Part shown: piece after piece, positions 23,524 through 60,100 of the stretch
Layout of the letters: each line of letters starts with the position of its first letter
Position numbering within the stretch: position 1 is the first letter of the stretch
Source: Bacilli bacterium
Lineage (GTDB): Bacteria; Bacillota_I; Bacilli_A; RF39; UBA660
Direction: 5' to 3'
Assembly (NCBI GenBank): GCA_022801735.1
Contig: JAAWSW010000001.1
Coordinates: 1-60,271, forward strand
DNA: 60,271 bases
The notes under the pieces: generated by a model
What the model saw: the letters and a program-made list of their open reading frames with translations, nothing else
What the model was told of the DNA's origin: nothing
The model's database searches: none
Made by a program: the position numbers and the translations under genes

Positions 23524-24285
23524 GATTTAATATCATTTAAGATAACGTAGTTCTAAAACATAGTTACCACTCCTATTCTTTTGGAATATGATTTAATACT
23601 ACTTAAGATGACATAGTTCTAAAACAAGCAAGTGGATTATATGGGTATGATATTAGATTTAATACCATTTAAGATAACATAGTTCTAAAACTCATACTTT
23701 TTGGGGTTGTTTAACAATTGTGATTTAATACCATTTAAGATAACATAGTTCTAAAACGTGGATTCATTACCTTTACTGTTATTTGTCGATTTAATACCAT
23801 TTAAGATAACATAGTTCTAAAACTTCTTTATTCATCTAACCACCTATTAACTTGATTTAATACCATTTAAGATAACATAGTTCTAAAACGGGTTAGTTAC
23901 ATTGGTGCATTAGATCATAGATTTAATACCATTTAAGATAACATAGTTCTAAAACTCATAGATACTGTACCAATAATATACTACGGATTTAATACCATTT
24001 AAGATAACATAGTTCTAAAACTTATACATAATATATAATGCGGATAGCATAGATTTAATACCATTTAAGATAACATAGTTCTAAAACTTGCTATATGATG
24101 TTTTATATTCTTCAATTGATTTAATACCATTTAAGATAACATAGTTCTAAAACGCCAACTATCTTATAACGTTGTGAAGTGTTGATTTAATACCATTTAA
24201 GATAACATAGTTCTAAAACTCTTATGATATTATTAAGATGTCAAAGCGAGATTTAATACCATTTAAGATAACATAGTTCTAAAAC
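23524..24285 (-). CRISPR. Type II-A CRISPR array: 12 repeats of 36 nt and 11 spacers of exactly 30 nt
   Basis: The repeat in transcribed (minus) orientation is GTTTTAGAACTATGTTATCTTAAATGGTATTAAATC. Repeat starts on the plus strand are 23524, 23590, 23656, 23722, 23788, 23854, 23920, 23986, 24052, 24118, 24184 and 24250. The two repeats farthest from csn2 are degenerate (2 and 3 mismatches), which marks that end as leader-distal. Confidence 0.97.
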
Positions 24286-24356
24286 CTCAAATAATTAAAG
24301 AACTATTCTAACGACATAGAAAGTTAGCACCTTAAATAGTAACTATGTCTAATTAA
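24286..24356 (-). promoter_or_regulatory. CRISPR leader (71 nt between the csn2 stop and the first repeat)
   Basis: On the minus strand the leader ends ...ATTATTTGAG directly before GTTTTAG. A possible -10 TAGAAT lies at 24305-24310. A 7-10 bp inverted repeat GACATAG...CTATGTC spans 24313-24349. Confidence 0.6.
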
Positions 24357-25031
24357 TTATAACATAATTTCGTCTAAATTTTTATCAATTATCAATTTAT
24401 GCTCATACTCCAATGTTGGACCATAACTTTGTGAATCTATTAATAATATTTTTACTTGATTATACAAAGCATATTTATAAAATTCAATTAATTCATCTTG
24501 GTTTAAATATTGTTTTAAATTAACAAAGACTAAAATTTTATTTAATTTAAATATTTTCTCTAAATCTATACATAAAAACAAATTATTAAGTAAATTATTA
24601 TCAATCAAAAATCTAGGTTTCAACAATTTAATAAATAATTCTAAATTAAATTCATCATTTATTAAAATTGGTAAATCAACTTCCTTAATAAGTTGTGTAA
24701 AATCTTTTTTTATTTTCTTATAATCAGTAGTAAATTTATTGTTTATTTCATCATTACAAAATGTAGAAATATACTTTATAAAAGGATTTGAATAACATTT
24801 AAATAATTCATCAAAATTAAAATAATCCGATACCACCATAATTTTACCAGCAATTACTAATTCTGAATTATCAGAATTAAAACAATAAAAGTTGTCTAAA
24901 ACATCCCCATTACTAATAAAATTTAAATCCCTAACACATCTATAAAAATAATTTTTATTTTCTATTTCTAAAGAAAACACATTATTACTAAAATCTAAAA
25001 CATTTTCCAAATAATCAAACTTTATTTTCAT
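24357..25031 (-). CDS. csn2: Csn2 (type II-A signature adaptation protein)
   Basis: 224 aa, located after cas2 with an ATGA overlap. The N-terminus 'MKIKFDYLENVLDFSNNVFSLEIENKNYFY' is Csn2-like. Confidence 0.85.
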   Translation of the reverse strand: MKIKFDYLENVLDFSNNVFSLEIENKNYFYRCVRDLNFISNGDVLDNFYCFNSDNSELVIAGKIMVVSDYFNFDELFKCYSNPFIKYISTFCNDEINNKFTTDYKKIKKDFTQLIKEVDLPILINDEFNLELFIKLLKPRFLIDNNLLNNLFLCIDLEKIFKLNKILVFVNLKQYLNQDELIEFYKYALYNQVKILLIDSQSYGPTLEYEHKLIIDKNLDEIML

Positions 25032-25348
25032 AGAATAAGTAACCTTTCATCATTATCAACTATTTTAGAATTATTACTACCTATTACATATTCAATTTGA
25101 GCATACTGTTTTTCTGTAACTGTAAGCATTTGAACAATACCTTTTTGAGGTGCGTTTTTTCTAACTCTTTCCATCAAATACTTAGTTTGTCCAGAATTTA
25201 AAGTTAATTTAGAATAAACAGATTCTTGTAACATTAAAAAACCTTCATTAATTAAAAATTTTCTAAATTTAATATAATTTTTTCTATCCCTAGCATAAAC
25301 ATTAGGTAAGTCAAAAAATACAATTGTCCTCATCGCCCTATCCCTCAT
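25028..25348 (-). CDS. cas2: Cas2
   Basis: 'MRDRAMRTIVFFDLPNVYARDRKNYIKFRKFLINEGFLMLQESVYSKL' is colinear with S. pyogenes Cas2 'MSYRYMRMILMFDMP...'. I chose the ATG at 25348 rather than the track TTG at 25357. Confidence 0.9.
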   Translation of the reverse strand: MRDRAMRTIVFFDLPNVYARDRKNYIKFRKFLINEGFLMLQESVYSKLTLNSGQTKYLMERVRKNAPQKGIVQMLTVTEKQYAQIEYVIGSNNSKIVDNDERLLIL

Positions 25349-26210
25349 AAAATACAAAATCCTTATATATTACGTTGTTTTCTAACACTAACAGTGTGTT
25401 TTTTACATATAGTGAAACAATATCTTTAACTGTATATAATTTACCATTGAATTTATATCTTTCATTAAACAAATTTACTAAATCCATTTTACAATTAGAG
25501 TCAAATTTTCTAGACTGATTATAATAAACAAAATTATCAATAATAATTCGAAATGGCTCCATTAAGTCACAAGATAAATTAAAATTATTAAATTCACTTT
25601 TATGATTAATTCCTATTTGTGTAATATAACCATTACTAACCACTTCTTTATTAACTGTAGATAAAAGAATTGCATATCCATAATTAAGCATAGAGTTAAT
25701 ATCATCATCACTATTGCGAATAAATTTTTTTCCAAATAAAGAATTGAAATAAACTTTGGCAGCATGTGCCTCTCTATTAGTTTTATCCCCTGGATTAACC
25801 TCATCTATATAAGAAATCAATAAATTAGTATTATTACTTTTAATTTTCTGTAACAATAACATCTGATTCATTATTTTATTTTTTACTATTTTTTGCCATA
25901 AAACATCTTTATCTTTTTTTAACCATTTAGTTTGAAATAAAATCTTTTTGGTAGAATTATGACAATTATAATATGATGAAAGTTCGCCAAAGGGATTATG
26001 TTTCTCATCACAAAAAATAATATTTATTTTACTTTGAGATAATTCTTTAAGAAGATATGAAGAAATAGATACTGAAATAGAATCAACTATAACAGTATCT
26101 ATCTCCGACAAATGAATATATTTTTCATCCAAATCTTGCTTTACTACTAAATATTTATTTTTATAACTTATTTTAGACGCATTACTAATTACTACTGTTC
26201 TAAAACTCAT
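25338..26210 (-). CDS. cas1: Cas1
   Basis: 'MSFRTVVISNASKISYKNKYLVV' resembles the type II Cas1 N-terminus. Length is 290 aa. It overlaps the cas9 stop by 11 nt. Confidence 0.93.
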   Translation of the reverse strand: MSFRTVVISNASKISYKNKYLVVKQDLDEKYIHLSEIDTVIVDSISVSISSYLLKELSQSKINIIFCDEKHNPFGELSSYYNCHNSTKKILFQTKWLKKDKDVLWQKIVKNKIMNQMLLLQKIKSNNTNLLISYIDEVNPGDKTNREAHAAKVYFNSLFGKKFIRNSDDDINSMLNYGYAILLSTVNKEVVSNGYITQIGINHKSEFNNFNLSCDLMEPFRIIIDNFVYYNQSRKFDSNCKMDLVNLFNERYKFNGKLYTVKDIVSLYVKNTLLVLENNVIYKDFVFYEG

Positions 26211-29200
26211 ATGTATCTCCGTATAATCCAGTTACTGAATTATAAATAATTTTACCATGTTCAATAATTCTTTTTTCTTTTTTGCCAAATGCAGACGATA
26301 ACTCATTGTTAAATTCTTTCAAATTTGCTGTTTCCCTATTAAATTTTAATAATCTTAACATCTGTACTATAATAATTTCTTTCTCATGAACAGTTAAAGT
26401 ATCTATTCTATCAATCATAAAATTATTTTTCATATTTGGAACTAAATCATTATATAGTTTATATTCACTTTCTATTTTATCCACAATATAAATTACAATT
26501 TCTGATAATTGTTTATTATAAACTTCTTCAGTAATTTTATCTGTTTCTTTGTTGTTTAAAACTCTATTCAAAGAATATTTCCACTCTTTTAAATGCTCTT
26601 TATCTATAATAAATTCTTTAGCATTACAAACTTCAACCTTATCAGTAGCACCTCTCAATGAACATATTTGGCCATTCCAATCAATAATACTATGAAATGG
26701 AATTTTATCTTTAATAATTTCTACACTTTCATTATCTTTTAAACCTAGTAAATTTTTAATATAATTTATTTTTGCACTATCATTATTTAATTTATCAATA
26801 TAAATAGGCATTCCTATCATTCTTTGAGAAGTTTTGCCTTTTTTATTAAATTTAACTATAACCCCATAACCAGGGAGTACACGACTATATCCACCATATA
26901 ATTCTGTAGATAATCCTTTTTTTAATGATGTAGTTTTAGTTCCCTTTTTAGACATATTTTGTTCATAAAATTGTCCAGTCCTAATTTCAGTTTTTTTACT
27001 AACTAAAATATCAGAATTATAAAGTGTATTAGTAATAGTATCAATAAATTTTGCATTATCAATTAAAACTTCACCAGTTTCCTTATCAAATGGAACTATT
27101 TCAGGATCTATATTATTAATAAGATATCCATATTTTTTATTGTATTTATATTTCCCACTCTGATAGATTTCGTAATTATTTTTCTTTAAAGTTTCAAAAT
27201 CAACATCCTTAAAGAAAGCATCTTTATAAACTCCTAAAACTGTCGCTAAATAAGCATCATGTGTATGGTGAAAATCATTTAAACTTCTATATTTAAATAA
27301 TTCAAATTTACTTCTAAAATCACTAGAAAAACTTGCCTTCAAATATATAACCTTTGTCTTTTTATAATAAGTATTTAAAATGTTAGCAATATGTTTAGTA
27401 ATTTGTCTAGTTTCTACAATTTGTCTGTTGATAAAACCATTTATATCTGCATCACTATATTTATATCTTTTTAAATTATTAATTTTTTTATCAGAAAGCA
27501 ATCCTTTTTTCTTAAGGTTTTCCCACCATACAATATTAGATTTACTTCTAAATTGTTCAGGTAATACAAAACTAGACGCTTTTGCTTGATTTTCTTCTCT
27601 AAGAACTAATGCTTTGTTATCAATAGAATCATCTTTAATTAATGTTCTAGGAATTATATGATCAACCTCATAATTATCCAAATTATCTATATTTAATGGT
27701 CTACCAGAATATAAACTTTTTCCCTCTTGAAGGAAATATAAATAAAGTTTCTCTTTACTAAGTTCCTTTTCTTCTTTACCATTCAATTCCTTAAATAATT
27801 GATTATAATTATCAATACTATTTTTGGCTTTTTTATAGGTTTCCACTAATTTATTTTTCCTACTTTGAGTTCTTTGTTTCTTACCGTCTTCACGGGCCAT
27901 CTCTAAAATAATATTATATGGTTCATAACCTATATAATTTACAATTTCTCTAACAATTTTTAAAGACTGATAAATCCCTCTCTTAACAGCAGGTGAAGTT
28001 GCTAAATCAGCAACTACAGAATAATCTAATTTAGTAATATTCTCTATCACATTAAATTTATCTATCATTTTTTGAAAATTATATTTTTTATCATTAATTA
28101 TTTGCATAAAATTTAACTTAGTTTCAATCATTAAATCCATTATTGATTTTTTTGTACCTTCATTTTTATCTTCATAATACTTAGTTTCAAGTAATTTTCG
28201 AGACAATTGACTCCAACCTTTATATTTCTTAGATAGAATTTTTCTAATTTTTGAATCAGACAATTCACAATATTTTTGTACAACCTTTCTTTCAAGAATA
28301 CTTTTATCCTCAAAAATAGTTATCCATTCAATAATTTCCTCTGCATCATTAATATCATAATTTGTATTTTCAAAAATGCCATCTGGACCAAAAAAATCTA
28401 TATATGGTTGCATATTGTTAGCAAATTTATTTAAAGCAGAATAACCTGTAATATTAAAATCATTATACATAGAAAACTCATCTAATGTTTTTAAATAATC
28501 AACAAATACATTATTGGTAATATTACCATTCTGTTTTAAAAACAATTCATTATAAACCTTTCCAATCATATCTGATGTTAATTTTTCATTATTAACTTTG
28601 ATTTGTTTTAATTCATTATAAACTTTAAATTTAGAATATAATATAGAATTGTTTGGTATAGATGGTTCATTAAGAATGTATGTACAATTAGATATCATTC
28701 TTTTAATAAACTTTTCTGCAGACGCATCTAAATCGACTACTTCTTCAAAGTTATATGGAGTAATCTTAACATTATCCACTTTTCTTTGAACCCATGAATT
28801 CTGATTATTTTGTCCCTTTATATTTGTAGTATTATTTAAAGGGCCTACAAAATAAGGTATTTTAAATGATAAAATTTTTTCAATTTTATACACACCATTT
28901 ACTTTATCAAGCAAAAATGGATAATACTTCCCTTGATTTTCTATAATTGTTTTAAGTTCTTTTTTATTAAGTTGATATGGATATTTTCCATTATCAGAAT
29001 CTGTAATTCTTGGCATAAATTGCTCATTTTCCATTTCAGCCAATTTAATATCTTGGTATAAAGAAATAAGTTTTTGATCATTAATATCACGCAAACATAT
29101 CTCAATACTCTTTTTAACAGCATTGATAAAATCTTTATAGCTCATATCATTATGTACATATTTATCATATACACATTTAGTTTTACCAATTGTTCTTAAA

Positions 29201-30240
29201 ATTTTATTATATTCTTTCCTATTTTTACACAATATACTTTTCAAAAATTTTAAATCTTCTTTATGCTTTTCAAATTTTGAAACCATAAGATCTGAAATGT
29301 TTGTATGGTCTGCTCCTTTAAATAATGACTTCAAAAAAACCATATCATAAACTTCTTTAAATAAGTTTATAACTTCCATATTAGTACTTATTATTTTTTC
29401 TATTTCATCTAATTTACCATCATAATCAGTCCCTTTAAAACTAATAGATAATTTAGAATCATATTCTATTCCAAATAATTTCACTAAATCTGATTTATTA
29501 CCAATCATTAATTTGGTAAATTCGTTGATAAAATTTTTATTTTCAAAAGTTTTCAAACATTCTTTAATTAATCGTTCTCTATCCTTTTTAGACTCAGCAA
29601 GTAAAGCCTTTTCCAATTCTTTATAATCGATATTACCTATATGTTCTTCATCAAAACCTAAAGAATCATTAATTTTAACCAAAGTTTCAAACGATTGATG
29701 TAATTTATCTATTATATCCAAATTATCTACATCAAAATTATCATTAGAATATAAAAAATTACCTCTATACTTAATAATATGATGTAAAGCCAAATAAACA
29801 AGTCTTACATCCTCTTTTTGTGGATTATTTACAAGCCTACTACGCAAATGATAAATTGTTGGATATTTATCATGAAAGTTTTTTATCATATTTTTTTCAG
29901 CAACTGACATATGGATTGTTTTGTTTTCTAAATCATCTTCTCTATAAAATGATTCTTTAAGTTTTTTGAAAAAATTAACATCATTTTTTTGGATTTCATC
30001 GCAAAAAATTTCTTGCAATAATTTAATACGTTCTCTTCGTCTATCATATCTACGTCTAGTACTTCTATAAAGTCTTCTTTCTGCTGCACTTTGAGCCTCA
30101 TCAAATAATCTAACACCCCATAATTTTTTATTACCTTTACGCATAACTTTAAAATTATCATTATTAATAACTGCCCATCCAACAGATGATGTCCCTATAT
30201 CTAAACCAATACTATATTTCTTTCTATTATCTACTGTCAT
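26200..30240 (-). CDS. cas9: Cas9 (type II-A, 1346 aa), with catalytic motifs intact
   Basis: 'YSIGLDIGTSSVGWAVI' is RuvC-I. 'YEVDHIIPRTLIKDDSIDNKALV' is HNH. 'NDFHHTHDAYL' is RuvC-III. SD is GGAGGAG. There are no internal stops. Confidence 0.97.
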   Translation of the reverse strand: MTVDNRKKYSIGLDIGTSSVGWAVINNDNFKVMRKGNKKLWGVRLFDEAQSAAERRLYRSTRRRYDRRRERIKLLQEIFCDEIQKNDVNFFKKLKESFYREDDLENKTIHMSVAEKNMIKNFHDKYPTIYHLRSRLVNNPQKEDVRLVYLALHHIIKYRGNFLYSNDNFDVDNLDIIDKLHQSFETLVKINDSLGFDEEHIGNIDYKELEKALLAESKKDRERLIKECLKTFENKNFINEFTKLMIGNKSDLVKLFGIEYDSKLSISFKGTDYDGKLDEIEKIISTNMEVINLFKEVYDMVFLKSLFKGADHTNISDLMVSKFEKHKEDLKFLKSILCKNRKEYNKILRTIGKTKCVYDKYVHNDMSYKDFINAVKKSIEICLRDINDQKLISLYQDIKLAEMENEQFMPRITDSDNGKYPYQLNKKELKTIIENQGKYYPFLLDKVNGVYKIEKILSFKIPYFVGPLNNTTNIKGQNNQNSWVQRKVDNVKITPYNFEEVVDLDASAEKFIKRMISNCTYILNEPSIPNNSILYSKFKVYNELKQIKVNNEKLTSDMIGKVYNELFLKQNGNITNNVFVDYLKTLDEFSMYNDFNITGYSALNKFANNMQPYIDFFGPDGIFENTNYDINDAEEIIEWITIFEDKSILERKVVQKYCELSDSKIRKILSKKYKGWSQLSRKLLETKYYEDKNEGTKKSIMDLMIETKLNFMQIINDKKYNFQKMIDKFNVIENITKLDYSVVADLATSPAVKRGIYQSLKIVREIVNYIGYEPYNIILEMAREDGKKQRTQSRKNKLVETYKKAKNSIDNYNQLFKELNGKEEKELSKEKLYLYFLQEGKSLYSGRPLNIDNLDNYEVDHIIPRTLIKDDSIDNKALVLREENQAKASSFVLPEQFRSKSNIVWWENLKKKGLLSDKKINNLKRYKYSDADINGFINRQIVETRQITKHIANILNTYYKKTKVIYLKASFSSDFRSKFELFKYRSLNDFHHTHDAYLATVLGVYKDAFFKDVDFETLKKNNYEIYQSGKYKYNKKYGYLINNIDPEIVPFDKETGEVLIDNAKFIDTITNTLYNSDILVSKKTEIRTGQFYEQNMSKKGTKTTSLKKGLSTELYGGYSRVLPGYGVIVKFNKKGKTSQRMIGMPIYIDKLNNDSAKINYIKNLLGLKDNESVEIIKDKIPFHSIIDWNGQICSLRGATDKVEVCNAKEFIIDKEHLKEWKYSLNRVLNNKETDKITEEVYNKQLSEIVIYIVDKIESEYKLYNDLVPNMKNNFMIDRIDTLTVHEKEIIIVQMLRLLKFNRETANLKEFNNELSSAFGKKEKRIIEHGKIIYNSVTGLYGDTYEF

Positions 30241-49562: not shown

Positions 49563-50564
49563 TTAAAAATTTAAACCATTATCCACTAAATTTACATTAT
49601 CAAGTAAAACTCCAGTACCCTCAACAACACAAGTTAAAGGACTTTCAGCAATAAATACTGGTACTTTAAGTTCGTGTGCTAATAATTGATCAAAACCATT
49701 AAGTAAAGCACCACCACCAGTTACCACAACACCTTTATCAACAATATCTGCAGATAATTCTGGAGGTGTTTGCTCTAAAACTGCTTTAGCAGTATTTATA
49801 ATTGTATAAATACTTTCTCTTAATGCCTCTTCAACCTCATCAGAAGTAATAGTTACAGTATGTGGTAATCCAGTAACTAAGTCACGACCTCTAACTTCCA
49901 TTTTTTCGTTTAAAGCACCTGGAAAAACAGTACCAATTGTAAACTTAATATCCTCTGCTGTACGATCACCAATAAGTAATTTATATTTATCTTTTAAATA
50001 TTTCATAATATCACTATCAAAAACATTACCCGCAATTTTAATAGAAGAAGAAGTAACAATACCACCTAAAGATAAAATTGCAATATCAGTAGTTCCACCA
50101 CCAATGTCGATAATCATATTACCACTAGGTTTTGAAATATCCATTCCTGCACCAATAGCAGCAACTTTTGGTTCTTCTTCAAGAAATACTTTTCTTGCTC
50201 CAGTTCTTTCCGCCGCTTCTGTAATCGCATTTTTTTCTACTTGAGTAATATTCGAAGGACAACAAATTAAAATTCTAGGACGAGCAAAAAAACTTCTACC
50301 ATTTACTTTTCTAATAAAATGGTTAAGCATTATTTCCGTAATTTCAAAATCCGCAATAACTCCATCTTTCATAGGTCTAATAGCCTTAACCCTTCCTGGA
50401 GTTCTACCAAGCATATCCCTAGCCTCTGTTCCAACCGCTAAAGGTCTTTTTGTGTCAGCATCTATAGCCACTACACTAGGCTCATTTAAAACGATTCCTT
50501 GCCCTTTTATATATATAAGTACGTTTGCTGTTCCTAAATCTATTCCAATATCTTTTGAAAACAT
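49563..50564 (-). CDS. mbl: MreB/Mbl actin-like rod-shape protein
   Basis: 'DIGIDLGTANVLIY' and 'DIGGGTTDIAILSLGG'. It lies directly downstream of spoIIID, as mbl does in B. subtilis. Confidence 0.9.
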   Translation of the reverse strand: MFSKDIGIDLGTANVLIYIKGQGIVLNEPSVVAIDADTKRPLAVGTEARDMLGRTPGRVKAIRPMKDGVIADFEITEIMLNHFIRKVNGRSFFARPRILICCPSNITQVEKNAITEAAERTGARKVFLEEEPKVAAIGAGMDISKPSGNMIIDIGGGTTDIAILSLGGIVTSSSIKIAGNVFDSDIMKYLKDKYKLLIGDRTAEDIKFTIGTVFPGALNEKMEVRGRDLVTGLPHTVTITSDEVEEALRESIYTIINTAKAVLEQTPPELSADIVDKGVVVTGGGALLNGFDQLLAHELKVPVFIAESPLTCVVEGTGVLLDNVNLVDNGLNF

Positions 50565-50619
50565 ATATATCACCTTTTTCCTTCTAATATTATAACACAG
50601 AGCATCCCATTTTAATAGA

Positions 50620-50874
50620 TTAACTAGATAAATTTAAATACTTTTTTTTCGTTGATTCCCCGCCCTTAATATGTCTAATATCCATGTGATATTTAAGTAT
50701 TTGCTGAACAGATAAATATAAGCCCTCATCAATAACTTTTAATCTATCTTTCAAATCTTTATGAACAGTACTTTTTGATACATTAAATACCTTTGCAATC
50801 TCTCTTAATGTATCGCCTGTATCAATCATATATTCCGCTTCCAATATAACTCTCTTAACAATATCATTTTCCAA
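50620..50874 (-). CDS. spoIIID: Sporulation transcriptional regulator SpoIIID
   Basis: 'REIAKVFNVSKSTVHKDLKDRL...ILKYHMDIRHIKGGESTKKKY' closely parallels B. subtilis SpoIIID. A probable TTG start preceded by AAGGGG gives about 84 aa. The track ORF start at 50943 looks too long. Confidence 0.8.
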   Translation of the reverse strand: MENDIVKRVILEAEYMIDTGDTLREIAKVFNVSKSTVHKDLKDRLKVIDEGLYLSVQQILKYHMDIRHIKGGESTKKKYLNLSS

Positions 50875-50963
50875 ACATATCGCCCCTTTATTTAAGTATA
50901 TAAATTTGGAAAAATAATTAGACCAAAATATAATATATAACAATAAATAGGCGCCAAATAATT

Positions 50964-51824
50964 TTATAATTGATCTAATAAAATTTTTAAATAATTACTA
51001 TCCTCTATTTTATTAATCCCAAAACATTTTTTACCTAATTCCTTAAATGAGGCTCCACAGTGATATAAAATACTATCATCGATAATTATAAACCTATCAT
51101 GAAATTTATAATTATTAATTATTTCAATATTATCATACTGTTTCATATATTTTGTTATTGCTGTCTTATCAATATTTTTAGTATATATTTTTATAGGAAC
51201 TGTTATATTTTTAATTAAATTAAATAACGTCCTCCCAGCATAATTATCTATAATTATTATTTTTTCTTTAGCATTAGTTAATATTTCCATCATCAAATTA
51301 TATGCATCATATATTTGCCCTTCAAAAAACAAATGATTATTTGGAGTATTTTGAAAATTATCAAAAGTCTCCTTTAAAAACTTTATATCATCATCGTGTT
51401 TTAAAACCAAACTATTTATATACCTTTGTTCCAATAAACTATTAGACATAAATTTTCTCATGGCTACAAAAGCACGCATAATATCTACACTTATTTGGGC
51501 AGCTTTTTCCGTTCTCAGTACTGAAGCAAGCATCGCAACACCCTGCTCAGTAAAAACGTATGGTAACTTTCTAACCCCACCTTGATTACCAATTTTTGAA
51601 GTTCCATTTTGGAACTTCAAACCATTATATTCTTCCTTTGTTAACTGAAAATAAAAATCTTCTGGAAATCTATTAGTATTTCTTTTAACCGCTTTATTTA
51701 TATCCTTTGTTCCATTCGCACATCCATACAATTTTGCTAAATCTGAATCCAACATCACCTGTTTACCTCTAATTTCATATATCATATTTTTAATATCATT
51801 ATCCTTAATCATAATTTCATTCAT
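50964..51824 (-). CDS. ORF6N (KilA-N-like DNA-binding) domain protein with a PLD-like C-terminal domain
   Basis: The N-terminus 'IRGKQVMLDSDLAKLYGCANGTKDINKAVKRNTNRFPEDFYFQLTKEEY...LPYVFTEQGVAMLASVLR' is ORF6N. The C-terminus 'FHDRFIIIDDSILYHCGASFKELGKK' fits an HxK(4)D(6)GSxN-like pattern with K replaced by R. Start at MNEIMIKD with a GGAGGTG SD. Confidence 0.7.
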   Translation of the reverse strand: MNEIMIKDNDIKNMIYEIRGKQVMLDSDLAKLYGCANGTKDINKAVKRNTNRFPEDFYFQLTKEEYNGLKFQNGTSKIGNQGGVRKLPYVFTEQGVAMLASVLRTEKAAQISVDIMRAFVAMRKFMSNSLLEQRYINSLVLKHDDDIKFLKETFDNFQNTPNNHLFFEGQIYDAYNLMMEILTNAKEKIIIIDNYAGRTLFNLIKNITVPIKIYTKNIDKTAITKYMKQYDNIEIINNYKFHDRFIIIDDSILYHCGASFKELGKKCFGINKIEDSNYLKILLDQL

Positions 51825-51910
51825 TATAAACACCTCCATTTTCAAATAAGCCCTTTTATTCCCTCATCTATAATATACAATTTTTGTATATCAAATCCCT
51901 GCTTCAAACA

Positions 51911-51936
51911 CAAAAAAATTGCACTTTTATGCAATT
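51911..51936 (-). terminator. Terminator ending the DAC gene / small ORF transcript
   Basis: ATTGCA-loop-TGCAAT followed by T7 on the minus strand. Confidence 0.55.
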
Positions 51937-52095
51937 TTATAATTTTTTATAATAAACACTGTACACTCTTTAATTTTCCATTTATTATCCACATTAACTA
52001 ACTCAAAACTAGTAATAATTTCTTCTGCTTGATTAATATCATCTACAACATTACCTTCATTATCAACAATATAACAATATCCTTTTATAATTCAT
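51927..52095 (-). pseudogene. Frameshifted small ORF (intact form about 55 aa) coupled to the DAC-domain gene
   Basis: AAGGA SD plus ATG (52095-52093) lie right after the upstream stop. The ATG frame reads MNYKRILLYC* while the +1 frame is open for 54 codons (IIKGYCYIVDNEGNVVDDINQAEEIITSFELVNVDNKWKIKECTVFIIKNYKIA*). Removing one A from the A4 run at 52083-52086 joins the two frames. Confidence 0.45.
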
Positions 52096-52103
52096 TTATA
52101 TCC

Positions 52104-53255
52104 TTAGTAACGCTTAAGTCGCCCAGACAAAAGATTAGCCAAAGGGTCAAATTTATCATCGTTATATGCATTACATATCTTATCATTTTCCCTTAACGCT
52201 CCATTTATATATTCACTCATTATTACCCTCAAATCCGCTGGCGTTTTATCAGGATTATTAACAATAATCCTTATACACTCCCAAGCGCTTTCCAAATCAA
52301 GTTCCATAACTTTTTCTAAAACACCGACTATTTCATCTTTAAAGATTGGCGCTAACGCACGAGCTAAATCAATTAAATTATTAAATGATACAACATTTAT
52401 ATTATCATCAAAAGATGATGATTTTTTCTTTTGTTTAAGAAAATTTTCATTAGCCCTAAAAGCTAAATCCAATATTTCGACATAACAATTGGTATCCAAT
52501 ACATTCTTATCTGTTAACAAGTCTACAAGTGACTGATCCCCAAGGGGTATATTATAAACATAAGCATGAGGGGTAATAGCCTTATACGACTTATAAGCAG
52601 CCATCATAATAGAAATTCTGTCAGGCCTTTTTTGCACGTCTTCATTATAGTAGATTTCCTTCATTTGTTTTTTAAACATTGTTATCCCACCATAACGTAA
52701 TCTAAACGTTTTACATGCAACCGCCAAATAAAGTTTATCCGCCAATAAAAGACGATGTGTCCTCTTATTTACTTTGTATTTTACTGTAGTTGGACTTTTT
52801 ATTGCACTATCATTAACCTTTTTTTCGGCAAAATAATTCTGCGGATCACCATTATTAAGACCTACAACATCTTTTTTATCACCTTGATAAACAGTAATAA
52901 TACCTTTTCTTTGAGAAACTGCAACAGCAATACAATCTAATTGTTTTGCAACCCTTTCAGCAGTCCTATGCCTCATTCCAGTTTCAAAAGTTTGAATATT
53001 TTTAAGCGGTAATAACTGAACATTGGCCGCGATAATTGTATCCATACTAGAATTTAATATAATCGCACCGTCTAGTTTAGCAAGTTCAAATATCTTTTCA
53101 GGAGAGTAACTTTGATTAACATAGAACCCTCCATCCATAATTTCATTAAGGTTTTCTCCACCGCCAATTATAATAAGTGCTCCTAATTTGGCAGATACAA
53201 TATTCTTCAAAGCATCAATAAAACGTGGATTCCTTTCTAAAATATCATTATACAT
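52104..53255 (-). CDS. DisA-type diadenylate cyclase (DAC) domain protein with a non-DisA C-terminal half
   Basis: The N-terminal ~140 aa, 'GALIIIGGGENLNEIMDGGFYVNQSYSPEKIFELAKLDGAIILNSSMDTIIAANVQLLP...ETGMRHRTAERVAKQ', closely parallel B. subtilis DisA and include the DGA and RHR motifs. The remaining ~240 aa show no DisA linker or HhH features. Start at MYNDIL with a GAGGGGTG SD. Confidence 0.75.
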   Translation of the reverse strand: MYNDILERNPRFIDALKNIVSAKLGALIIIGGGENLNEIMDGGFYVNQSYSPEKIFELAKLDGAIILNSSMDTIIAANVQLLPLKNIQTFETGMRHRTAERVAKQLDCIAVAVSQRKGIITVYQGDKKDVVGLNNGDPQNYFAEKKVNDSAIKSPTTVKYKVNKRTHRLLLADKLYLAVACKTFRLRYGGITMFKKQMKEIYYNEDVQKRPDRISIMMAAYKSYKAITPHAYVYNIPLGDQSLVDLLTDKNVLDTNCYVEILDLAFRANENFLKQKKKSSSFDDNINVVSFNNLIDLARALAPIFKDEIVGVLEKVMELDLESAWECIRIIVNNPDKTPADLRVIMSEYINGALRENDKICNAYNDDKFDPLANLLSGRLKRY

Positions 53256-53284
53256 AAAAACACCCCTCAATTAAAATATAAACA

Positions 53285-53329
53285 TATTATACTTAAAAAA
53301 ACACACTTGTCAAATTGAAAAAATTGACA
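53285..53329 (-). promoter_or_regulatory. Sigma-A promoter with an overlapping palindromic operator-like site upstream of the DAC gene
   Basis: The minus strand reads TTGTCAA-N10-TTGACAA (53306-53329). The right arm supplies the TTGACA -35, with TATAAT 16 nt downstream (53285-53290). Confidence 0.45.
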
Positions 53330-53360
53330 ACAAAAAAAGATATTTATCAAAAATATCCTT

Positions 53361-54005
53361 TTATAATTCATTAATATTTTTATCATAATATTCTTCAGGA
53401 TTAACATAGGTACCATTAACTTTAATTTCAAATACAAAATGATTACCCAAATCCTTATTCATATTTGATACACCACTTTTACCAATGATATCCCCTTGTT
53501 TTACCTTATCATCTTTTTTTACCTTTACATCAGTTAAAGTTTGATAAATAGTAATCACTTTATCAGAACTTTGAATTTCAACAATAGTTCCTAAAAGTTT
53601 ATCCTCTTTAACACTAGTAACAGTTCCATCTAATGAACTAGCAACATCAAAAGCCCCTTTAGGTCCACCATATGCAACACCACTATTTTGAATATAAGTT
53701 TGTTCATAATTAATTATAGAGTTTTCTTGTTCTTTTTCACTGCCTTTATAATTATAAAAATTTTGAACAATCTTAATTGAATCATCTATATAAGGTCTCA
53801 TTATAACTGATTCAGTATTCACAACAGGAATATCATCACTACCAAACAACCTAGAAACATATTGCATATCATCATCAGTTGCCTTATCACTAGGCGCTAA
53901 ATTCTTATTTGAAAAATCAACATAATAAAGTGCTCCTAGCAATAATGCAAATAATCCAGTATACATTCCATAAAGAACTGGTTTTTTCAACTTAATTTTC
54001 TTCAT
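53361..54005 (-). CDS. spoIIQ: Membrane-anchored degenerate LytM/M23-domain protein, SpoIIQ-like
   Basis: N-terminal TM helix. The C-terminal LytM fold 'GDIIGKSGVSNMNKDLGNHFVFEIKVNGTYVNP' has the HxH motif degenerated to HFV. Its position between spoIID and spoIIID matches clostridial spoIIQ. Confidence 0.55.
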   Translation of the reverse strand: MKKIKLKKPVLYGMYTGLFALLLGALYYVDFSNKNLAPSDKATDDDMQYVSRLFGSDDIPVVNTESVIMRPYIDDSIKIVQNFYNYKGSEKEQENSIINYEQTYIQNSGVAYGGPKGAFDVASSLDGTVTSVKEDKLLGTIVEIQSSDKVITIYQTLTDVKVKKDDKVKQGDIIGKSGVSNMNKDLGNHFVFEIKVNGTYVNPEEYYDKNINEL

Positions 54006-54051: not shown

Positions 54052-54963
54052 CTATATTTTTTTAATTTCTGTTCCTTGATAATAATATTTTAAAATTTTA
54101 TCATAAGAATAACCTTCTTTAGCCATACCTAAAGCACCATATTGACTCATACCAACACCATGACCAAAACCTTTAGTTGTAATAATAACCTTATCATTAT
54201 TCTGAATAACATTAAAATAATTAGAACGAAGTTTTAATTTAGTTGCTACATCACGTCCATTAAACTCTACTCCATTTATCTTAATTTTTTTATTACGACC
54301 CGTACTAGTTTTTTCTAAAACTTCAAAACTAATTTTATCACTATATTTCAAACCTAATTTATTATAAAAATCAGCAAGTTCAAAACTAGCAGTATCCTCA
54401 TATGCTGGAGAATCCTCATCCCATGTACTAACCACACTTCTTAAATAAGGAACCTTAGAAGAAAACACTTCCTCACTATTTTCCGTTTTTCCTGTACTAG
54501 TAGAAAAAAACAAAGTTTCTGCAATCTCGCCATTATAACTTAAATATTCCCCCTTTGTTTCAGTAACTGCTGTTTTTAATTTGTTAATCTTAGACACATA
54601 TTCATCTTTCCACTTTTCTTTTAACTTTTCGTCAGATAAATATACCTGATTATCAACCGTATTTACAACATCATAATCCTTAGATTCATTTTTTTTCATT
54701 TGAATTAAAGCATAACTTCGTGCGGCTACTGCCTGAGCCTTTAACGCCTCAAGTTCAAAACTAGTAGGCATCTCCCCTGCTAAAACCCCTTTAACATATT
54801 CTTCAAAAGGAACCTCTACAATTTTATCTGCACTTACATCTTTTACCCTTATCACTTTATTAGAAACATAATGAAATTTAATTTCATCAGTTCTGACAAA
54901 TAAATTGACAATAAAAAAAGGAATAAATACTACTAATAAAGTAATCAAGAGTATTTTTTTCAT
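54052..54963 (-). CDS. spoIID: Stage II sporulation protein D (lytic transglycosylase)
   Basis: 'VKGVLAGEMPTSFELEALKAQAVAARSYAL', 'ETLFFSTSTGKTENSEEVF' and 'GFGHGVGMSQYGALGMA'. Confidence 0.88.
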   Translation of the reverse strand: MKKILLITLLVVFIPFFIVNLFVRTDEIKFHYVSNKVIRVKDVSADKIVEVPFEEYVKGVLAGEMPTSFELEALKAQAVAARSYALIQMKKNESKDYDVVNTVDNQVYLSDEKLKEKWKDEYVSKINKLKTAVTETKGEYLSYNGEIAETLFFSTSTGKTENSEEVFSSKVPYLRSVVSTWDEDSPAYEDTASFELADFYNKLGLKYSDKISFEVLEKTSTGRNKKIKINGVEFNGRDVATKLKLRSNYFNVIQNNDKVIITTKGFGHGVGMSQYGALGMAKEGYSYDKILKYYYQGTEIKKI

Positions 54964-57195: not shown

Positions 57196-60100
57196 TTATT
57201 TAAAACTATGAATACGATTTCCTATAGGAGTCTCTACTGTTTTTGATAATGATACACTTCTGTTATAATCACCATCACTACCAGCCACTGAAGTAATGTT
57301 ATTGTTATAGAAACGAATAAAATCCGTATTATAAGAAAAATAATGCCAAATTACAATTTCCTCTAAATCATATACTTTACCTAAATCAACTATTAAACAT
57401 TGATTACCACTATCCCCCATATATGCAAAGCCACTATTACCACCATGATTATCCATCTGACCATCAACAGCGTTTGAAAAGGCATAAGTAGTATTATTAT
57501 ACGCGTCTGCAGGAACACCATTCTTTAAACCAGAAACATTTTTTCCCTTAGCAACATTAACACCTTTATTGATGGCCTGTATTTCCACCCAATGATTACC
57601 TACATTTTCACCATTACCATTAATACAATCTTTTATATATCTAACACCTTTTATTTTTGAACTATCTTCACTACTAGGATATTTTAAATATGTTATTTTA
57701 ACCTTACCATTTCCATTATTAACACCTGTTTTCATCTCGGTGTTAATAAAATATTTTCCAGAATAATGTTTGGTTTGATTCGTGTGAATACCAGAAGAAG
57801 CAGATGTTATTGAATTAGATCCAGCATATCCAGATATATATGATGACCCACTTCCTGCATAAAATACTCCACTATTTAACCCTGATGCTCCAGAACCACC
57901 ATAATAACCAGAACTACCACTAGCACCACCGTAAGTAATAGCACTATATACACTAGCGCCTCCATTACCAGCAAATCCAAATCCACCTGCAGTACCATTA
58001 GAAGTAGCCGAAGAAAATTTAGTAGGTGCAATTCCACCACTAGTTTGCTTAGCCTGTTTTCCTACATAATCATAATATTCATAAGTTAGAACTGCCTCTC
58101 TACCTATTAAATCTCCACCTTCGCTACCAAAAGTTCCACCTGCTGCCACCATTATTCTACTTCTCAGTGAAGTAACATTATCCCAATTTCCACTAACTAA
58201 TCTAACATCAGTTGCTCCGCCACCAGTTGGACCACACGCACCATTGGCATTCTTATCATTAATAGCCCCATTATTAAAACCGGCTATAGAACTGCAAACA
58301 TTACTGGCATTACCTTGTTGACCAACATAAACATAAAGTTTATCACCTTTAGTCAAATAAATTTCACCTTTAGTATATGCACCACCTTTAGAATTTGTAT
58401 CACTATATATTTTCCCACCTGAAGCACCCCAAAGTTCTATCTTATAATATCCGTCCTTTTCAGCAATATATTCTTGGACACCACCAGTATATTCAAGTTC
58501 ATTTCCTTCAAATATAACTGCATAACTACTAGACACTTCATTTGTTCCATCAAATACCTTTGCGACTAAACTTCCTGAATCCGAGTATATTACATCTTTA
58601 GATTTTTCTGTAACCTCTACCCATTCATCTTCATCTTTTTGATATGAACACGTTAACGTATCACCACAACCTTCTGGATATGTTATTGTCACTTTTTTAT
58701 CTGTTTCTGCCTCATTTTCTACAAATGTGGGGACAGATAATCCATTTGTTGTTACCTTCAATTCATTTGATGTAGTTACTTTTCCAACTTTACTTGTTAC
58801 TCTTACCTTTATAGAATATTCAGTATTTTTAGTAAGACCTGTAAACTTATGAAAATTATCATCAATTATCCATTCCCCACCATTTATGGAATATTCATAC
58901 TTAGATATTCCACTTTCACTAGAAGCATCCGCAACTACTGTTATTGAATTAGTTGTACTTGAACTAGATAAATTGATTGTCGCTGGATTTTCTGCATCTA
59001 TCATACAATTATTCGACTGAGTTACTGATGATATTTTACTATCCAACCACGTAGAAATTACACTAGCGTTCGCTATTGTCCATTTTGATCCAACATATAC
59101 TTTTTCTAGATTTTTAGTTCCCCTAAACATATGATTCATATTTGTAACTTTACTTGTATCAAATGAACATAAATTAATCTTTCTAAGTTCGCTATCTCCG
59201 CCTTCATTGTTATAAAACATACTATCCATATTTTCTACATTACTTGTATTCCATGTTCCAAGGTTTATCTCCTTTAATTTGGGACAATGTTGAAATAATG
59301 CATTCATTGTTGTTACATTTTTAGTATTAAAGTGCCTTATATCAATTGATTCTAATGAATAACATCTATCAAACATATAGGCCATATTTTCTAAACTATC
59401 CGTTTTCCAATTAGATAAATTTATTGTCTTTAAATAAGTATTTTGATCAAACATTGAATTAGTTGATGTAACTTTTGAAACATCAAAATTTGATACGTCA
59501 AGTGTAGTATAACTACCATTTCTAAACATTGCGCCCATATTAGTCACTTTACTTGTATCAAAATTTTCTAATCCCTTTATTTCACTTAAAGCACCCTTAT
59601 TAAAATAATTATCGAACATAAATTGCATATTAGTTACACTGCTTGTATCATAATTAGTTCCAAAGTCTATAGTTTTAAGGTTATAAAATTTAAAGAATAG
59701 ATAACTAGAATTTTCATTAGCAATTACGCCGCCATTACCACCTATATATAAATCATATTTACTATTATCACTAGCATTAATCATCAGCCATGCCATTACG
59801 CTTTTATCTTTTGCTTCTGATACATCCCAACTAACAACTGCATTTTCTGGTACATTTTTATTATCTAAGAAAGTCGCACTTACTATCTTTTCTCTATATT
59901 CATCACTATGAAATTCTGTATGAATAACCCTCGGAAAAGCATTCTCTGAAAGTGTTTCATCACACCAACTTTTTATAATTGGTCTTCCTTCGAATATCGC
60001 ATATAAAGTTATATCTTCACTCGGCATTTGTAATTCTGTTAATCCATCTTTAGCATCTTTATTAGTGTTCCATCCTATAAATTCATATCCTTCTTTACTT

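Follow-up and report, generated by a model that had tools for sequence, protein, structure and literature searches.

Why should a gene for a predicted diadenylate cyclase (DAC) lie between two core sporulation genes? This question is raised by a 60,271-nucleotide (nt) stretch of DNA, here called the window (positions 1 to 60,271 of contig JAAWSW010000001.1, assembly GCA_022801735.1), from an uncultured gut bacterium of about 28% GC deposited as "Bacilli bacterium." In the window, about 2.4 kb of DNA separates spoIIQ from spoIIID and carries two genes on the minus strand. Gene 1 (52104-53255, stop codon included) encodes a chimeric DAC of 383 amino acids (aa). Gene 2 (50964-51824) encodes a 286-aa protein with an ORF6N domain and a phospholipase D (PLD)-like domain, and it falls in the PADLOC family PDC-S05. 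A prediction made earlier from the sequence alone (the original prediction) had grouped the two as a signaling or defense module. The explanation that we favor, and regard as probable, is that they are two independent cargoes of an insertion hotspot and that gene 1 is a domain-shuffled derivative of DisA.

The catalytic domain and C-terminal region of gene 1

The DAC domain of gene 1 covers residues 14 to 132 (52860-53216, minus strand), as delimited by Pfam, PDB, AlphaFold2, Foldseek, and invariant columns. The Pfam family PF02457 matched residues 19 to 132 of the 388-aa open reading frame (ORF) with an E value of 2e-27, and the best PDB match was the DisA protein of T. maritima (E = 1e-25), with the DAC domain alone covered. 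The segments LDGAIIL and ETGMRHRTAERVAKQ were found in the protein, and the catalytic motifs DGA (D62-G63-A64), RHR (R95-H96-R97), and SQRK (S114-Q-R-K) were all kept. The domain was 50 to 56% identical to clostridial and Bacillus DisA. Its AlphaFold2 model had a predicted local distance difference test score (pLDDT) of 90 to 97 and was matched to DisA by Foldseek with an E value of 5e-15. The near-textbook DisA-type domain that had been predicted was thus found by Pfam, PDB, and motif inspection alike. The similarity to DisA (PDB 3c1y and 9y4s) in fold and in the DGA, RHR, and SQR(R/K) motifs did not extend to the whole protein. About 20 N-terminal residues of DisA are missing from gene 1, as are the helical-spine linker (PF10635) and the HhH domain. 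With the NCBIfam DisA model (NF010009), only model positions 24 to 141 of 357 were aligned, and the score of 164 bits was below the cut-off of 201 bits. A protein search with the N-terminal domain returned short DisA fragments alone. Gene 1 also differs from disA in its setting, since it is not near radA but has spoIIQ and the ORF6N gene as neighbors, and in being a hotspot cassette of one species group.

The identical gene 1 protein was called on at least 22 contigs, on which NCBI labels it a hypothetical protein. Both gene 1 and gene 2 were present on every contig read that carried an identical SpoIIQ, so they are fixed in the species. The window contained no DAC paralogue, no gene related to cyclic di-AMP (c-di-AMP) was found among the ten large ORFs scanned in it, and an Rfam search of the window gave no family besides one tRNA, hence no c-di-AMP riboswitch.

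Similarity to DisA ends abruptly past the sequence ITVYQGDKK, and the remaining residues, 133 to 383 (52107-52859, minus strand; here called the tail), are predicted to be all helical, with low confidence. A word-indexed search of 5.8 billion proteins returned only the tail itself and one 88%-identical allele, found on a contig named L080 (see below), and an exhaustive phmmer search of 1.84 billion representatives returned the tail itself alone. With tblastn against phages and plasmids, disA was the only thing matched. No match was obtained in IMG/VR viral contigs or in Joint Genome Institute (JGI) metagenome contigs, in Pfam, NCBIfam, or PDB at E values up to 10, or by phmmer among the proteins that relatives carry at the same locus. 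The DisA linker and HhH domain were looked for separately in gene 1 by Pfam (E up to 10), by NCBIfam, and by hhalign against DisA-linker fragments, and none of these found them. These searches show the tail to be an orphan at the sequence level, and the claim that the C-terminal half of gene 1 is new and has neither the DisA spine nor the HhH domain was borne out in all of them.

Two ways in which a disA remnant might have been overlooked were considered and rejected. First, a hidden DisA linker gave an hhalign probability of 63% just for the shared end of the DAC domain (SQRK..ITVYQGDKK) and of 0.24% for residues 241 to 383. Weak same-frame tblastn matches around RANENFLKQKKK to the DisA sequence KANQALQTLEKYK were not significant. 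Second, a frameshifted disA remnant was sought, and no linker or HhH match was found in the other frames.

The contig L080, 1.48 kb long, carries the sole other known allele of the DAC gene, and its protein is 88% identical to that of gene 1. No insertion or deletion separated the two alleles over 383 codons, and synonymous divergence (dS) was 0.2 throughout. The ratio of nonsynonymous to synonymous divergence (dN/dS) was 0.26 in the tail, compared with 0.19 in the DAC domain, and the synonymous excess in the tail was significant (binomial P = 4e-6). As judged from this codon comparison, the tail is shown to be a real coding sequence under purifying selection. This result bears on the idea that gene 1 is a decaying or accidental chimera, a disA fragment joined to meaningless sequence and without function. 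The abrupt break after ITVYQGDKK is what such an accident would leave, and so is an orphan tail for which no confident structural model was obtained. Against this, both alleles have stayed intact over their full length at a dS of 0.2 with a constrained tail, the catalytic motifs are intact, the promoter and the ribosome-binding site conform to consensus, and no DisA-like sequence occurs in the other frames. We consider a functionless chimera very unlikely. In terms of its sequence, gene 1 is best described as a known class of enzyme in a new architectural form, found in one species group.

The DAC cassette and its relation to gene 2

Gene 1 starts with an ATG at 53255, with a GAGGGG ribosome-binding site 8 nt upstream. 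It is preceded by a sigma-A consensus promoter, TTGACA-16-TATAAT (53286-53313, minus strand), which has 12 of 12 consensus matches and is kept in L080. The extent of the unit that carries gene 1 was delimited by comparison with L080. The match between L080 and the window (92.7%) is confined to positions 53323 to 52072. Upstream of the -35 element, L080 is unrelated to the window, and the upstream neighbor of its DAC gene is not spoIIQ. Downstream of the gene there is no ORF6N gene in L080. Two direct repeats, 34 nt long and imperfect, with a 21-nt exact core, were found in the window on the minus strand with a distance of 1276 bp between them; such a repeat had zero occurrences in shuffled sequence. 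Copy 1 (53349-53382; exact core AATGAATTATAAAAGGATATT at 53352-53372) covers the last codons and the stop of spoIIQ and the start of its terminator, and copy 2 (52073-52106; exact core 52076-52096) lies directly after the stop codon of gene 1. The repeat is present in L080 as well, where it leads into the native spoIIQ terminator and the intergenic DNA that is found after spoIIQ in two related loci (L011 and L013). Because the match with L080 is limited to 53323-52072, with native DNA beyond the repeat, the moving unit consists of promoter, gene, and repeat, a cassette of 1.25 kb according to these alignments.

A partial duplication of the spoIIQ 3' end was also observed in another relative. 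In L037, a second copy of SpoIIQ residues 184 to 214 (61% identity; L037:9249-9341) lies about 650 nt downstream of the true gene end. In sequence, this copy recalls the repeat of the spoIIQ end on either side of the DAC cassette in the window.

The promoter region of gene 1 had also been predicted to contain a repressor operator, in the form of a perfect 7-bp inverted repeat, TTGTCAA-N10-TTGACAA (53307-53330), overlapping the -35 element. Both the sigma-A promoter and the inverted repeat are present in the sequence. The inverted repeat, in turn, spans the insertion junction. Its left arm, TTGTCAA (53324-53330), is native post-spoIIQ sequence, and its right arm is the -35 element of the cassette; therefore, the palindrome is a product of the junction. 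Cassette homology to L080 begins only at 53323, and in L080 the sequence TTGTCAA occurs after the terminator and not ahead of the promoter, so the inverted repeat is not conserved. We therefore rejected the operator reading of this repeat.

A spacer of 280 nt separates gene 1 from gene 2. It contains a start-less frame of about 52 codons (remnant frame, 51927-52085), which reads to …IVDNEGNVVDDINQAEEIITSFELVNVDNKWKIKECTVFIIKNYKIA* at the stop at 51927 and is followed by a terminator-like hairpin (51912-51934) and a T-run; frame and hairpin together occupy 51912-52085 on the minus strand, as read from the sequence. The remnant frame had no homology in relatives and no family match, and no gene was called for it on public contigs. 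It probably represents what is left of the 3' end of a gene that a cassette insertion displaced.

These features were weighed against the model in which the DAC and the ORF6N-PLD protein form one cyclic-dinucleotide module, with gene 1 as the synthase and gene 2 as a nuclease-like effector. The two genes are adjacent on the same strand, lie in a defense hotspot, and are fixed together in the species; in addition, PDC-S05 is a defense candidate of which one representative was reported to be protective in Escherichia coli. The direct repeats, on the other hand, enclose the DAC cassette only, and the spacer with its remnant frame and hairpin lies between the genes. The DAC gene occurs without the ORF6N gene in L080. 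Conversely, no DAC gene accompanies the ORF6N-PLD genes of L015, L016, and three unrelated contexts that were sampled, and co-occurrence of the two genes elsewhere was not seen. Even within the species the ORF6N allele can vary, since in L085 a different one (84% identity) stands beside a near-identical DAC gene. Furthermore, by definition PDC-S05 consists of a single gene, and no known domain for binding cyclic dinucleotides is present in gene 2. A joint module is highly improbable on this evidence, and the original prediction was not upheld in this respect. The comparison of loci shows genes 1 and 2 as independently acquired single-gene cargoes of the hotspot, that is, as neighbors rather than a working pair, to the extent that gene arrangement can tell.

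The features of gene 2 are consistent with a protein that would act alone. It matched the PADLOC PDC-S05 model PDLC04869 end to end (E = 1.7e-95, residues 10 to 292 against profile positions 9 to 299 of 306), and nothing notable set it apart from that family. The Pfam ORF6N domain (PF10543) was found with 112.4 bits, the gathering threshold being 27.8. More than 8000 homologues were found, with 55 to 66% identity across the top matches listed. Judging from its sequence, gene 2 belongs, as an ordinary member, to a known and widespread candidate anti-phage family. In E. coli, a PDC-S05 representative was reported to lower T7 and T5 plating by about 1000-fold (bioRxiv 10.1101/2024.09.26.614923); it was described with a RhuM domain and could thus come under a different PDC-S05 sub-model.

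The C-terminal domain of gene 2 (residues ~170 to 286; 50967-51317, minus strand) was predicted to have a PLD fold with a pLDDT of 85 to 90. The protein contains the segment FHDRFIIIDDSILYHCGAS, and the residues of the motif H242-x-R244-x4-D249-x7-G257-x-S259 were invariant in 32 homologues. Foldseek matched the domain to NucT, Zucchini, Nuc, PLD1/2, FAM83, and TrmB/TrmBL2 with E values of 1e-7 to 1e-4; for NucT, Zucchini, Nuc, and PLD1/2, the E values were 1e-6 to 1e-4 and the target-normalized template modeling (TM) scores 0.5 to 0.56. The fold is therefore common to PLD/HKD nucleases (Nuc, NucT, and Zucchini) and to the noncatalytic PLD-like domains of TrmB/TrmBL2 and FAM83. Gene 2 resembles TrmB also in its layout, in which a DNA-binding domain at the N terminus is followed by a long helix and then by a PLD-like domain. 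It differs from the nucleases in that no Pfam PLDc match was found and in that the canonical HxK(x)4D(x)6GSxN is replaced by HxR(x)4D(x)7GxS. Thus, an ORF6N protein with a PLD/HKD-like C terminus and a lysine-to-arginine change, as originally proposed, agrees with the modeled fold and with the motif, and catalysis is putative.

An 8-bp perfect palindrome, ATATACAA-AAA-TTGTATAT, was observed just upstream of the ribosome-binding site of gene 2 (51870-51895). It could be an operator, and we annotate it as putative.

The spoIIQ-spoIIID gap and the possible role of gene 1

The insertion lies in the conserved spoIID-spoIIQ-spoIIID-mbl block. In the window, the block consists of spoIID (54052-54963; TIGR02870, 328 bits), a spoIIQ-like M23 peptidase gene (53361-54005; NCBIfam SpoIIQ, E = 6e-50; Pfam M23), spoIIID (50620-50874; Pfam SpoIIID, E = 3e-26), and mbl (49563-50573), all on the minus strand. 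We examined the spoIIQ locus of 69 related species and mapped the proteins of the window onto these loci. Toward spoIIQ, nucleotide homology to relatives stops at about 53330; it restarts at about 50928, upstream of spoIIID. Therefore, the inserted accessory segment corresponds to about 50929-53323. The native stubs on either side of the insert sum to about 90 nt, the size of the uninterrupted intergenic region, and the spacing between spoIIQ and spoIIID is 50 to 100 nt in about 40 of the 69 species. In the closest relatives (SpoIIQ 65 to 81% identical), the gap can be as short as 60 nt or as long as 4.5 kb, and its content differs; the varied cargo found there amounts to 0.2 to 4.5 kb. Several metagenome-assembled genome (MAG) contigs of close relatives break directly after spoIIQ. 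The synteny check thus agrees with a genuine insertion in this block, with the coordinates given in the original prediction.

The cargoes found in the gap were of several kinds. AbiEi/AbiEii genes occupied it in L027 (e.g., L027:8808-12133) and L028, AbiLi/AbiLii genes in L039 (L039:4585-6784), and PDC-S01 genes in L030 (L030:8706-9977) and L032, and an ORF6N gene of PDC-S05 was found in L015 and L016. The defense flavor attributed to the locus is consistent with these systems filling the same gap in relatives. Other loci held a helix-turn-helix protein together with an M78 protein (L020), a set resembling radical-SAM genes for a ribosomally synthesized and posttranslationally modified peptide (L037:8671-11845), or a 578-aa ORF with no recognized identity (L024). 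These results show that accessory genes, for the most part defense genes, collect in the spoIIQ-spoIIID gap, which is a recombination hotspot in a clade of gut Bacilli that are uncultured and of low GC content. The gap is a practical site for mining the accessory and defense genes of these bacteria.

Two further observations concern the cargoes. In L016, the ORF6N-PLD gene borders a run of genes for membrane proteins and of large ORFs (L016:6130-13071). If our reading of ORF sizes and order alone is right, made with no scan against a family library, this run is conjugative (type IV secretion-like), and PDC-S05 genes may travel on integrative conjugative elements. In addition, a gene for a secreted protein with a basic start followed by ...GYAAF.TNLNI.G recurs in L012, L014, L018, L023, L027, and L080 (L080:1455-1483). 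In several relatives it comes after spoIIQ, and in L080 it comes after the DAC cassette; the L018 copy has a Listeria-Bacteroides repeat domain.

The position of gene 1 between spoIIQ and spoIIID had also led to the suggestion of a lineage-specific sporulation cyclase, analogous to CdaS and expressed during sporulation. The flanking genes would fit such a role, and the terminator stem of spoIIQ is AT rich and weak, so that read-through is possible. However, gene 1 has its own sigma-A consensus promoter, scored 32 bits with the CdaS model (NF038328) against a cut-off of 225 bits, and has a neighbor other than spoIIQ upstream in L080. No DAC gene was found at the spoIIQ-spoIIID locus in any of the 69 related sporulating species. 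Given the promoter, the absence from relatives, and the second genomic context, we hold a sporulation role to be scarcely probable.

Gene 1 shares the DAC catalytic domain with CdaS, CdaA, and CdaM, but its scores with the CdaA (TIGR00159; 42.9 bits against 188.8) and CdaM (37 bits against 225) models were likewise far below the cut-offs. The N-terminal autoinhibitory helical domain of CdaS is absent, as the DAC domain starts at residue ~14, and so is the N-terminal extension of CdaA. In gene 1 the accessory region is C terminal instead of N terminal, and neither transmembrane helices nor a sporulation-type promoter are present. As in CdaS, a noncatalytic helical region probably controls the activity of the enzyme.

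A DAC active site arises only where two domains face each other, and every known DAC needs oligomerization and/or control. Excess c-di-AMP is toxic in Firmicutes. For these reasons, the tail of gene 1 may be the element that supplies oligomerization and/or on-off control. In this reading, the 1.25-kb cassette, with its own strong sigma-A promoter, encodes a domain-shuffled DisA derivative in which the DAC domain is retained and a lineage-restricted, probably helical region of about 250 residues stands in place of the spine and of the HhH domain that senses DNA. In line with the conservation of its catalytic motifs, the protein is predicted to make c-di-AMP. Because the tail replaces the spine and the HhH domain, the signal input would differ from the sensing of DNA branches by DisA. 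Gene 2, with an ORF6N DNA-binding domain joined through a long helix to a PLD-fold domain with an HxR motif, would function apart from it.

To our knowledge, DAC enzymes were known before 2026 solely as housekeeping signal synthases. Two have since been reported to be active in defense islands, PanS of Panoptoo and DS-2C of the DS-2 system, which resembles the cyclic-oligonucleotide-based anti-phage signaling system (CBASS) (bioRxiv 10.64898/2026.08.10.743927). PanS is a minimal DAC of about 150 aa in a two-gene operon with the two-transmembrane beta-rich (S2TM-beta) effector PanE, and DS-2C, of about 550 aa and encoded in a CBASS-like operon, has DACNG and DACNH domains at its N terminus and its DAC domain at the C terminus; both are about 25 to 27% identical to DisA (bioRxiv 10.64898/2026.08.10.743927). 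Gene 1 resembles them in being a DAC enzyme encoded among anti-phage genes. It differs from PanS in its 383-aa length and in lacking a membrane partner, its neighbors being spoIIQ, the remnant frame, and the ORF6N gene. It is set apart from DS-2C, as published, by an N-terminal and closely DisA-like DAC domain followed by an orphan domain, with no CBASS genes nearby.

This comparison bears on whether gene 1 alone could be a new single-gene defense or abortive-infection device, in which the tail senses infection and releases the cyclase, so that c-di-AMP or a noncanonical dinucleotide fills the cell and growth is arrested. The activity of DAC enzymes in two defense systems (bioRxiv 10.64898/2026.08.10.743927) makes this conceivable, the hotspot elsewhere holds Abi and PDC systems, and the cassette has a strong constitutive promoter and is lineage restricted like many defense genes. 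The argument is nevertheless one of guilt by association only, and no effector is evident. Gene 1 had no PADLOC match and no relatives in phages or viral contigs, and its DAC domain is 50 to 56% identical to housekeeping DisA, whereas that of the defense DACs is about 25% identical. We find such a device unlikely. A more specific form is a doubtful proposition too. In it, gene 1 represents a third, Firmicute-type class of defense DAC contained in a single polypeptide, the tail senses phage infection or a counterdefense protein of the phage and gates a cyclase of DisA grade, and the burst of c-di-AMP, a messenger both essential and toxic to the host, or of an altered dinucleotide is itself the abortive-infection effector, with no effector gene. 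By association only, the location of gene 1 points to an accessory and possibly defense-related role.

Several points weigh against the domain-shuffled, hotspot-borne cyclase that we prefer. The selection figure comes from a single pairwise comparison of two alleles in one species group. The AlphaFold2 pLDDT of the tail is mostly below 50, so that Foldseek alignments past the DAC domain are meaningless, and the regulatory or oligomerizing role given to the tail is purely inferential. Gene 1 could also be the main cyclase of the organism rather than an accessory one. As to mobility, no integrase, transposase, or recombinase gene is present at the locus, and repeat copy 1 sits about 29 nt within the native flank, off the junction; the cassette could have moved by site-specific insertion in trans or by homologous exchange via the conserved flanks. 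The generality of the finding is low, since the cyclase is known in one species group only. If active, gene 1 would add a third DAC architecture linked to defense hotspots and a Gram-positive example. Gene 1 also offers a clear example of a gene born by domain shuffling, here with orphan sequence.

Host lineage and other genes of the window

All genes within 49.5 to 55 kb of the window are on the minus strand. Related MAGs carry the labels Tenericutes or Mycoplasmatota as well. The complete spoIID-spoIIQ-spoIIID-mbl block was also observed in a 1.2-Mb circular contig and in MAGs with these labels (L031 and L069 to L076), which suggests that Mollicutes-like gut lineages with very small genomes form spores.

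Elsewhere in the window, a type II CRISPR-Cas locus was found at 23654-30240. It consists of a CRISPR-like array in which about 10 units recur every 66 nt (23654-24285), further ORFs (24357-26210), and a gene for a 1346-aa Cas9 on the minus strand (26200-30240). A large surface-type protein with DUF285 repeats and an ALK/LTK-like glycine-rich domain is encoded at 57196-60027, upstream of rpsF-ssb-rpsR. It is 943 aa long in the window and more than 1100 aa long on longer contigs.

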